NCBI GenBank assembly: GCA_023229365.1
Contig: JALNZK010000002.1
Location: 254,343-318,342 of the forward strand
DNA from: Pseudomonadota bacterium
GTDB taxonomy: Bacteria; Myxococcota_A; Polyangia; JAAYKL01
Direction: 5' to 3'
DNA: 64,000 bases
Part shown: positions 29,083-30,229 of the stretch, in pieces
How positions within the stretch are numbered: position 1 is the first letter of the stretch
Layout of the letters: the number at the start of each line of letters is the position of its first letter
Position numbers and translations under genes: made by a program
Notes under the pieces: model-generated
What the model was told of the DNA's origin: nothing
Database searches by the model: none
What the model saw: the letters and a program-made list of their open reading frames with translations, nothing else

Positions 29083-29387
29083 AAACATATAAGGAATTTG
29101 CGGAACAAGTTGGTGATTTTAAAGATCAGGAAACTTTATTAAAGACCTTGGGCTTAAAATCTGTGCCTCCAAAAAAACAATTAAAAGTAGTTGGTAATAC
29201 AGAGCCTGAATATGATCCCCAAGCAGAAAAGGCACAAGGTGATTTATATGCCTCTTTGGTAAAAGAATTACAAGATTTATTGGACACTTTGGACTGGGAT
29301 GAAAGCAATGTGGTGGGAATTCAACAAGCTCTTGCTAAAATCAATCACCAGGGACAGGCTTATCTCAAGCATATATCAAGCAAATGA
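29079..29387 (+). CDS. CTS-leader protein (candidate internal head protein), 102 aa
   Basis: N-terminus MKTYKEFAEQ closely resembles the T4 IPIII CTS MKTYQEFIAE as recalled. Confidence 0.5.
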   Translation: MKTYKEFAEQVGDFKDQETLLKTLGLKSVPPKKQLKVVGNTEPEYDPQAEKAQGDLYASLVKELQDLLDTLDWDESNVVGIQQALAKINHQGQAYLKHISSK

Positions 29388-30229
29388 AATTTTTAGAATG
29401 GGCAGAACAACGCCAACAACAACCGATAGCCGCACAACCAGTCATTTCCTATGACTTCGATGGTGTTTTACACACGGACGTTTACCCTGGAACCATTCAC
29501 CCCGTAGATTTTGATACCGCTGATCTTACCCCTAATTTACCAATGCATCGACAACTCAGAGACGATGCCAGAAAAGCCAAAATCATTGTTGTTACCGCTC
29601 GAAACCAAGATGGAATAATGGACGATGCCGCCAGACAGTTTGTTAGAAAGCATAATCTACCCGTCTCTGCTTTTTTCTTTACAAATGGTGGACAAAAGGT
29701 TTCTATACTCAAACAACAACACGCAATTAAACATTATGATGACGATCCCCGGATGAGGGCTCAATTGATGGACACAGGCATTGAATTTGTTCTAGTGCGA
29801 CCACAAATGGAATCGACAATATATGAGTCAGTAAAGAAAAGAAAGAAAACCAAACCTGCCGCTGGTATATTTTTCACAGACGGCAGAGCGGTGCTAATGC
29901 TCAAGCGACGACCACCAGGAAGCAATCCTAATACATGGGGACTTCCAGGCGGTCACTCAGAGGGCGAAGAAACGCCACTTATGGCCGCTCAAAGAGAAGC
30001 ACGAGAAGAATGCGGCAAAATGACCGGCAAGAAATTCGGTGTGCTAACCAGCGGTGCTTGGACTTGTTTTTTTTACCAAGTGCCAAAGACTTTTCGTTGT
30101 GAAATTAGCGAGGAACACGACGCTTGGGAATGGGTAAAATTTGAAGAACTTAAACACTTGCAATTACATCCCCAATTCAAAAAACAAATGCAAAGATATA
30201 TTGCATTTGTGAAAAGACACTTTGCCTAA
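29384..30229 (+). CDS. HAD-family phosphatase domain fused to Nudix hydrolase, with CTS-like leader
   Basis: HAD motifs DFDGVL (I), VVTAR (II) and HYDDD (IV). Nudix box GGHSEGEETPLMAAQREAREECG. N-terminus MKFLEWAEQ. Confidence 0.65.
   Translation: MKFLEWAEQRQQQPIAAQPVISYDFDGVLHTDVYPGTIHPVDFDTADLTPNLPMHRQLRDDARKAKIIVVTARNQDGIMDDAARQFVRKHNLPVSAFFFTNGGQKVSILKQQHAIKHYDDDPRMRAQLMDTGIEFVLVRPQMESTIYESVKKRKKTKPAAGIFFTDGRAVLMLKRRPPGSNPNTWGLPGGHSEGEETPLMAAQREAREECGKMTGKKFGVLTSGAWTCFFYQVPKTFRCEISEEHDAWEWVKFEELKHLQLHPQFKKQMQRYIAFVKRHFA

Follow-up and report, generated by a model that had tools for sequence, protein, structure and literature searches.

A HAD–Nudix fusion protein with a T4-like leader as candidate head cargo of a giant phage

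A stretch of 64,000 nucleotides from contig JALNZK010000002.1 (assembly GCA_023229365.1, positions 254,343 to 318,342; here called the window) contains an open reading frame (ORF) in which a HAD phosphatase domain and a Nudix hydrolase domain are joined in one protein that begins with the short leader MKFLEWAE. What would such a two-domain enzyme be used for, and why does it start with a peptide resembling the capsid targeting sequence (CTS) of phage T4? Here we propose that the product of this gene is an enzyme carried as cargo in the head of a giant T4-like phage, and judging from its sequence and that of its relatives we give this reading a probability of about one half. For the packaging of the HAD–Nudix protein as such we consider the odds even or slightly better. 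The evidence partly supports a T4-style head cargo that is distinguished by a rare HAD–Nudix domain fusion.

In T4 the CTS reads MKTYQEFIAE (PMC8442874). Suppressor studies assigned targeting to its residues 4 and 7 (Tyr and Phe) and processing to residues 8 and 10, and the protease gp21 cuts after L/I-x-E (PMC9026906). When the T4 genome was read directly, ipII and ipIII were found to start with MKTYQEFIAE and ipI with MKTFKEF, and the genes nudE, e, ipIII and ipII were adjacent. The leader in the window is built like those of the T4 proteins IPI, IPII, IPIII and Alt, a short N-terminal peptide in which a Glu stands between two aromatics spaced by three residues and hydrophobic-x-Glu comes next. 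As among the T4 internal proteins, it is common to unrelated proteins clustered in one locus, and like the T4 ip genes, which lie beside nudE, it is found next to a Nudix gene. Alt provides the parallel of an enzyme deliverable via the CTS. This resemblance to the head-loading tag of T4 suggests that the HAD–Nudix enzyme is probably injected with the DNA.

The 281-amino acid (aa) protein starts with MKFLEWAEQRQQQPIAAQPVISYDFDGVLH. In an alignment of the fusion proteins together with half-length homologues, F3 and W6 were the sole invariant columns, and they have the spacing of the two aromatics at T4 CTS positions 4 and 7. We searched the 85 ORFs of the window, 20,152 aa altogether, for the tag core [FY]-x-E-[FW]. 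It occurred 12 times, and half of these occurrences (6/12) lay within the first six residues (binomial P = 2e-7). The N-terminal tag was found in approx. 8 of the 85 ORFs, including the three genes directly upstream of the HAD–Nudix gene, and one additional ORF carried it at the C-terminus. No mutual similarity between the tagged proteins of the window could be detected in Pfam or PHROGs, and no homologue of the 151-aa neighbour (28627-29082) was found in cultured phages. The leaders differ in their synonymous codons and most of them have a Shine-Dalgarno-like sequence ahead; we concluded that selection acts on the peptide. A Glu follows two residues after the second aromatic in most leaders (WAE, FAE, WQE, WIE, WME; in relatives YVE, YIE, FLE). 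The leader of the HAD–Nudix protein was modelled as a short helix (residues 3-11) of lower confidence, apart from the HAD core.

The tag was also found at the other end of the protein. Among 96 relatives consisting of the Nudix domain only, F..W was present in the first 9 residues of 18 and in the last 20 residues of 33, with a density of approx. 20 per 1000 positions at the termini compared to 0.5 in the interior. Every sequence shown in the corresponding alignment (A4) was tagged at one end only, either by an N-terminal leader with spacer or by a C-terminal ...FKEW[LI].... In the loci L003 and L006 the gene following the C-tagged Nudix lies on the opposite strand, thus the tag is truly C-terminal. 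That the tag can occupy either end argues for a peptide that is recognised by a partner and against an effect on translation start.

As a control, the same search was performed on 163 kb of T4, where it gave 7 matches in 267 ORFs and recovered all three ip genes. Six matches were located at the first residue of the ORF (ipI, ipII, ipIII, 61.1, 57B and rI.-1) and one at an internal Met (nrdC.7). We concluded that the motif is sensitive, not perfectly specific. The CTS-like N-termini in T4 (NC_000866) other than those of ipI-III were MKTFKEFIKE in 61.1 (18966-19130), MKFSDF in rI.-1 (58819-59205) and MMEFKDF in 57B (73952-74410), which adjoins ipI. The literature we could search included few subscription journals, and in it neither CTS-like tags in giant T4-like phages nor a phage HAD–Nudix fusion has been described. 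The initial annotation of this DNA had called the leader capsid-targeting-like. Its resemblance to the leaders of ipI, ipII and ipIII, its recurrence on non-homologous neighbours, its conservation in orthologues, the tags at either terminus and an S77 protease in a relative all agree with that description, and packaging is what we infer from them.

In the protein itself both active sites, that of a HAD phosphomonoesterase and that of a Nudix pyrophosphohydrolase, are intact. The Pfam model NUDIX (PF00293) matched residues 156-269 with an E value of 2.5e-17 and 63.5 bits, compared to a cut-off of 21.1. The Nudix box, GHSEGEETPLMAAQREAREECGK, fits G-x5-E-x7-R-E-U-x-E-E-x-G-U with every catalytic residue kept, and its G, E, R, E, E, E and G were invariant in 46 family members. 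Ala and Lys occupy the U positions where bulky aliphatic residues are expected, and we therefore regard the box as functional rather than textbook-perfect. Thus the placement of a HAD and a Nudix domain in one 281-aa polypeptide, as first annotated, was borne out by the ORF, the Pfam NUDIX match and the HAD motifs, whereas the word perfect for the Nudix box was slightly generous with regard to the two U positions. Foldseek gave a probability of 1.0 to RenU, BdRppH, MutT2 and Ap4A hydrolases. Sequence and fold searches taken together placed the Nudix domain nearest to RenU, BdRppH, MutT, MutT2, NudI, Ap4A hydrolases and Dcp2, with BdRppH as best PDB sequence match, Dcp2 decapping enzymes among the top profile matches, and MutT, NudI, MutT2 and CTP pyrophosphohydrolase ranking high. 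The identity to T4 NudE was 33% over 63 aa, in the box region only. No NCBIfam equivalog came close to its cut-off for the window protein, so no substrate can be transferred.

In the HAD domain, motifs I (D24, D26, V28), II (T71), III (K105) and IV (D119-D120) are present, and the domain has a Rossmann-like HAD fold. The residues S22, D24, D26, G27, V28, L29, H30, P40, R73, K105, H117, Y118, D119 and D120 were invariant in 37 homologues and cover motifs I, III and IV as well as the Arg after motif II (T71). No Pfam HAD model exceeded its threshold; the best was the 5'-nucleotidase PF06189 with 15.8 bits, the cut-off being 28.2, and the PNKP-type models PF25109 and PF08645 were not reached. We ascribe the missing curated match to a HAD family too divergent for the existing models. 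PHROGs gave weak matches to the polynucleotide kinase phrog_415 and to a 'phosphoheptose isomerase' family, and HAD homologues showed weak, below-cut-off matches to HAD_SAK_2 and HAD_PNKP. With the 3'-phosphatase domain of T4 Pnkp and with Pnkp1 the domain shares the DxDG(T/V)L motif and a VVV(S/T)xR motif II with conserved Arg. In the hhalign comparison with T4 Pnkp, YDFDGVLH was aligned with FDVDGTLA and KIIVVTAR with QIVVVSGR, at a probability of 31% only. In contrast to Pnkp the window protein has no kinase domain, and the sequence similarity is marginal. We regard the domain as probably capless and Pnkp-like, and as no more than a putative member of the polynucleotide-phosphatase family. 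On a contig nearly identical to the window (L010, 1-398), a genuine Pnkp with PNK3P and an AAA_33 kinase is encoded just upstream of the window's region, as is a tRNA-synthetase-class-I-like protein.

AlphaFold predicted the whole protein with a pLDDT of 91.3 and the N-terminal domain alone with a pLDDT of 89.8 and a pTM of 0.82, as two independent domains connected by a disordered linker (residues 144-152). The start codon of the gene overlaps the stop of the gene upstream (ATGA), an operon-like arrangement. An identical protein (P0001) is encoded on a metagenomic contig of 340,072 bp, where it is annotated as "NUDIX hydrolase" only.

The phage to which the gene belongs can be recognised from its neighbours. 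The window has 40% G+C and encodes homologues of T4 gp46 and gp47, ribonucleotide reductase, baseplate hub, tail sheath and gp15-, gp14- and gp13-like neck proteins; by their sequences, the genes are those of a distant T4-like giant myovirus. The nearest cultured phages as judged by gp13 are Rak2-like jumbo phages (GAP32, CBB, PA5oct) with approx. 26-28% identity. No such leaders were found in the 18.7-kb region around the gp13 gene of PA5oct, which is therefore unusable as a proxy. The order gp13-like gene, leader genes, Nudix or HAD–Nudix gene recurs on the P0002 contig and in L001, L002 and LR756511.1, the last being an uncultured phage of 595 kb, and in every relative of this locus with visible context the gene adjoins the gp13-like neck gene. 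As listed, the gp13-like gene has a 5' extension that overlaps the opposite-strand 57-aa leader gene (26531-26704); judged from relatives its true start is probably Met45 (~26734). An HNH endonuclease gene (27632-28426, + strand) separates the gp13-like gene from the leader cluster. This gene is missing at the equivalent position in the P0002 contig, L001/L002 and LR756511.1, and is thus probably a mobile insertion. The T4 late promoter TATAAATA was not enriched in the window (5 matches, 4 expected), and none of the matches was ahead of the leader cluster.

A T4-type head module was found in LR756511.1 at ~520.5-533.6 kb (L016). It comprises a gp23-like capsid protein, a gp22-like, scaffold-like coiled-coil protein, a Peptidase_S77 and a gp20-like portal. 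The Peptidase_S77 (96 bits) is 35% identical to T4 gp21 and encoded between the portal gene and the genes for the scaffold-like and major capsid proteins. The portal ORF is unusually long (857 aa) with an apparent insertion. Beside this module are a NADAR protein (70.7 bits) that starts with MLTWTEFLEA and a phosphoribosyltransferase-domain protein with ...DFKEWYF near its start. In 140 kb of LR756511.1 the tag was present in 24 of 235 ORFs.

From these data the following course can be envisaged. The HAD–Nudix protein would be made together with the neck and head genes and would be docked by its leader onto the scaffolding core of the prohead. A prohead protease of the gp21 type (S77) would then remove the leader after Glu8 (W-A-E|Q), and a second cut, in the linker at I-Y-E148|S, may follow from the same protease. 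This linker sequence, I146-Y-E148, is one of just two [LI]-x-E sites in the protein; it hints at a cut but is not statistically compelling, as 2 sites in 281 aa is about the chance expectation. The mature enzyme would be ejected into the cell alongside the DNA. There the Nudix domain would split a nucleoside-diphosphate-X into a nucleoside monophosphate and phospho-X, and the HAD domain would strip the phosphomonoester from the product or from a 2'/3'-phosphorylated nucleotide. As a result a host nucleotide would be irreversibly destroyed ahead of any phage gene expression.

Several observations weigh against this reading. Some of them are differences from the T4 CTS: the second aromatic is mostly Trp, and the predicted P3 of the cut is an aromatic (Trp) rather than the Leu/Ile of T4; the C-terminal tags of relatives have no described counterpart in the T4 CTS, and for some of them no Glu that could serve for cleavage is obvious upstream. 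In the window, as in the 140 kb of LR756511.1, about 10% of the ORFs are tagged, which is high for a packaged proteome. In the T4 control the known internal proteins were just 3 of the 6 first-residue matches. The cargo differs as well, being a two-domain hydrolase and not a small basic protein or an ADP-ribosyltransferase as among the T4 internal proteins. Genes for prohead protease, scaffold, portal and capsid were not found in the window, L003 or L007 by tblastn with T4 gp19-24, gp67 and gp68, nor did Pfam annotations show head genes in the ~10 kb that flank the window on either side in contigs nearly identical to it; a prohead protease was seen only in the relative LR756511.1. With regard to the substrate, ADP-ribose pyrophosphatases (ADPRases) ranked far lower than the neighbours named above in the sequence, fold and family-profile-vs-PDB comparisons of the Nudix domain, and the closest relatives of the HAD domain are polynucleotide 3'-phosphatases, which act on nucleic-acid 3' ends, followed by class C acid phosphatases (score 12.3), MDP-1 (11.5) and 5'(3')-deoxyribonucleotidases (~9.5-10). 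Moreover, 'polyvalent' domain fusions may combine independent effectors and would then be weak guides to a substrate.

Of the alternatives, the processing of RNA or DNA ends survives best, although we regard it as unlikely. The Nudix domain would act like RppH or Dcp2 and strip RNA 5' ends of pyrophosphate or of an NAD/Np4A cap, and the HAD domain would act like the T4 Pnkp phosphatase on a 3'-phosphate or 2',3'-cyclic phosphate. The effect would be rapid decay of host mRNA or repair of cleaved tRNA, and both are compatible with packaging. The alignment of motif I and of the VVV(S/T)xR motif II with T4 Pnkp, the weak HAD_SAK_2 and HAD_PNKP matches of the homologues, the phrog_415 match of the window protein, and the positions of BdRppH and Dcp2 among the best Nudix matches speak for it. 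However, hhalign assigned the low probability given above, PF25109 and PF08645 were not reached, no RNA ligase is encoded nearby, and most relatives consist of the Nudix domain alone. End-healing is also already covered by the separate, genuine Pnkp just upstream of the window on the nearly identical contig.

It is somewhat less probable still that the protein is an ordinary cytoplasmic enzyme of the nucleotide pool, that is an unpackaged (d)NTP/NDP-X pyrophosphatase and nucleotidase, with the N-terminal motif as a lineage-typical amphipathic start that has no targeting role. If the phage DNA is modified, such an enzyme could purge a canonical dNTP/dNMP; alternatively it could recycle nucleotides. 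This would fit with the high ranks of MutT, NudI, MutT2 and CTP pyrophosphohydrolase, with the ribonucleotide reductase and the modification-pathway-like cluster in the window, and with the 10% frequency of the motif. But the motif, including its Trp, is under selection at the peptide level, with codons differing between genes, and it agrees with the T4 CTS at those residues to which functions have been mapped. Its presence at the C-terminus of 33 of the 96 Nudix relatives excludes an explanation by translation initiation, and the gene lies within a neck-gene locus and not among genes of nucleotide metabolism.

An address for the F-x-E-W tag other than the capsid interior, for instance another phage-built assembly such as one of a major-vault-protein (MVP)-like protein, a chaperone or adaptor, or regulated proteolysis, could account for tags at either terminus of ~10% of the ORFs scattered over 140 kb and could involve the 817-aa MVP-like protein just downstream in the window and the P0002 contig or the S8 subtilase encoded in the window and in L003, but we give it little chance, as no precedent is known and the T4 mechanism is the simpler explanation for leaders that are nearly identical to those of T4 ipI, ipII and ipIII and occur in a phage whose neck and sheath genes, and in the relative also the head genes, are of T4 type.

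If the HAD–Nudix protein is head cargo, which nucleotide would it destroy? The initial annotation had suggested ADP-ribose derivatives, among them ADPR-1''P and gcADPR, and the subfamily assignment does not support these substrates. The ADPRase subfamily (NudF, NUDT5, NUDT9), reportedly delineated by Dunn et al. in 1999, is said to have a conserved Pro ~16 residues after the box, and its members possess an extra N-terminal dimerisation domain. In the window protein no Pro follows the box until 22 residues further on, and there is no extra Nudix-associated domain; together with the profile and fold rankings this ruled out assignment to the ADPRase subfamily. Yet T4 NudE, a similar minimal Nudix enzyme, uses ADP-ribose besides FAD and ApnA (record annotation; PMC9503650). 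The hints are divided. The Pnkp, RppH and Dcp2 similarities point to nucleic-acid ends, while NAD or ADP-ribose is hinted at by a HAD domain joined to ART-PolyVal in P0098 (44.9 bits, cut-off 31.2), a phosphoribosyltransferase joined to HAD in P0092, the tagged NADAR protein, and an NAMPT gene in the window, 8 kb away. A connection of this NAMPT gene to the HAD–Nudix gene through NAD salvage was considered and could not be shown. No link to a HAD–Nudix fusion was found in the paper on NARP3 (PMC13464706). The most likely target, in which we have little confidence, is an NAD/ADP-ribose-derived or dinucleoside-polyphosphate nucleotide with which the host signals in defence or stress; every single substrate class is doubtful.

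Nudix, NADAR and ART domains were earlier predicted to be packaged in myovirus heads by Iyer et al. 2022 (PMC9503650), there on the basis of genomic context and of fusions to portal, MuF and protease domains. No experimental demonstration of myovirus heads carrying Nudix enzymes was found in the literature. The Nudix domain of the window protein resembles T4 NudE (gene e.1) and those predicted phage Nudix proteins as a minimal single-domain myovirus Nudix among late or virion genes. In contrast to NudE, the window protein has an explicit CTS-like tag and a HAD phosphatase fusion. Another likeness is to the polyvalent proteins of phages and conjugative elements, in which several enzymatic domains form one virion-delivered polypeptide (Iyer et al. 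2017, PMC5512222); homologues of the HAD domain described here are fused to ART-PolyVal. Unlike these, the window protein has two domains only, no MuF, portal or other anchor, and would be delivered via a short peptide tag. Encapsulins have a cargo-loading peptide at either terminus, likewise short, that loads unrelated enzymes into an HK97-fold shell; it binds the shell and stays on the cargo. There is no sequence relation between that peptide and the leader, and in the T4 model used here binding would be to the scaffolding core, followed by proteolytic removal.

The fusion is rare, and each of its domains comes from a large family of uncultured giant phages. A scan of 1.84 billion representatives gave 2063 matches. 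Clear fusions among the best 150 of these were P0003 and P0006 only; the remaining matches listed have one domain each, except for the larger multidomain proteins P0087 and P0185. Altogether four further fusions were found with 42-80% BLASTP identity to the window protein (P0002, P0003, P0004 and P0006). P0185 has two NUDIX domains and DUF2213, which we take to be an XkdF-type head-module family, and Nudix domains were also found inside phage genes annotated as portal or head-morphogenesis proteins. The fusion relatives have ~40 more interdomain aa, with the consensus ...EYDSGLNRPQNYxPxKLKKKxKIDKLFGE, a segment that the window protein does not have in comparison with P0002-P0006. In stand-alone forms the same segment, there of ~45 aa (...YDxGLxRxQNYxPPKLKKKxKIDKLFGE), is always located directly after the leader (Nudix: P0005, P0008-P0012; HAD: P0021). 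This suggests an origin of the fusion from a tandem pair of genes that each had a leader, in which case the segment would be a dispensable spacer behind the leader, lost from the window protein.

The T4 CTS has already been used to load foreign proteins into phage heads. If the tag described here is a packaging signal, the T4 CTS extends far beyond the T-even phages, and a simple motif reveals proteins that are injected by uncultured giant phages. Injected proteins are the first effectors that the defences of the host encounter, and apart from such a motif only virion proteomics can make them visible. In that case the HAD–Nudix fusion would be a concrete candidate for an enzyme loaded in advance to destroy a host nucleotide at time zero. 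The C-terminal occurrences suggest that the tag functions at the C-terminus too, which would be useful for engineering. A wider proposal, that F-x-E-W is an ancient relative of the T4 CTS, active at either end, which marks ~1/10 of the genes of 300-600 kb T4-like phages as ejected cargo, with the HAD–Nudix protein, alongside tagged NADAR and ART-linked relatives, loaded beforehand to erase immune signals made of NAD/ADP-ribose-derived or other nucleotides ahead of any phage transcription, is speculative and we think it rather improbable in its full extent. The features of the HAD–Nudix gene and the other tagged genes are collected in Table 1.

Table 1. Positions in the window of the HAD–Nudix gene, its parts, the neck gene and the tagged genes.
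Feature	Position	Strand	Remarks
Leader-HAD-linker-Nudix ORF	29384..30229	+	ATG to TAA, stop included; 281 aa
Leader MKFLEWAE, aa 1-8	29384..29407	+	T4-CTS-like; paired aromatics F3, W6; predicted protease site W6-A7-E8
Gln/Pro/Ala-rich spacer, aa 9-19	29408..29440	+	length varies among orthologues (gapped in alignment A1); pLDDT ~70
Capless HAD phosphatase domain (predicted), aa 20-140	29441..29803	+	D24, D26, T71, R73, K105, D119, D120
Disordered interdomain linker, aa 141-155	29804..29848	+	pLDDT <50 at residues 144-152
Nudix hydrolase domain, aa 156-281	29849..30226	+	Nudix box aa 190-212 = 29951-30019
T4 gp13-like neck (head-tail adaptor) gene	26602..27615	+	phrog_211; PF26809 Phage_T4_gp13 in relatives; anchors the locus
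57-aa gene, leader MKFSEWIK	26531..26704	-	divergent from gp13-like gene; 57-aa gene called at same place in P0002 contig
57-aa gene, leader MITFKEWQEG	28423..28596	+	AAGGAG 6 nt upstream of ATG
151-aa gene, leader MNFKEFITES	28627..29082	+	leader conserved at same place in relatives
102-aa gene, leader MKTYKEFAEQ	29079..29387	+	closest to T4 ipII/ipIII leader; no Pfam/PHROG match
200-aa gene, GTG start, leader MLTFKEWK	49760..50362	+	
272-aa gene, leader MNFKEWMINE	51001..51819	-	
phiEco32-type COOH-NH2 ligase, C-terminal tag ...FDFYREWNL	53624..54586	-	
98-aa gene, leader MGTFREF	55432..55728	+	helix-turn-helix matches weak, below cut-off

Directly downstream of the HAD–Nudix gene and convergent with it, a Lar-like restriction alleviation protein is encoded (30226-30438, - strand; phrog_599, E 9e-10). 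The MVP-like protein (817 aa; 30774-33227, - strand) has an MVP_shoulder (85 bits) and a vault repeat domain. Its gene lies on the other strand, 544 bp beyond the downstream end of the leader cluster with two small genes in between, and a shorter homologue occupies the same place on the P0002 contig. At 33788-39267 (- strand) a nicotinamide phosphoribosyltransferase (NAMPT), a PP2C phosphatase, another phosphatase-like protein and a protein of 571 aa, whose kinase match is weak and below the cut-off, are encoded together. This cluster may contribute to NAD salvage by the phage; an NMN adenylyltransferase was not identified in the window. A further cluster at 51-62 kb, which may be a modification pathway, contains the tagged COOH-NH2 ligase, an alpha/beta hydrolase, the S8 subtilase, a B12/radical SAM enzyme, methyltransferases and a glycosyltransferase.

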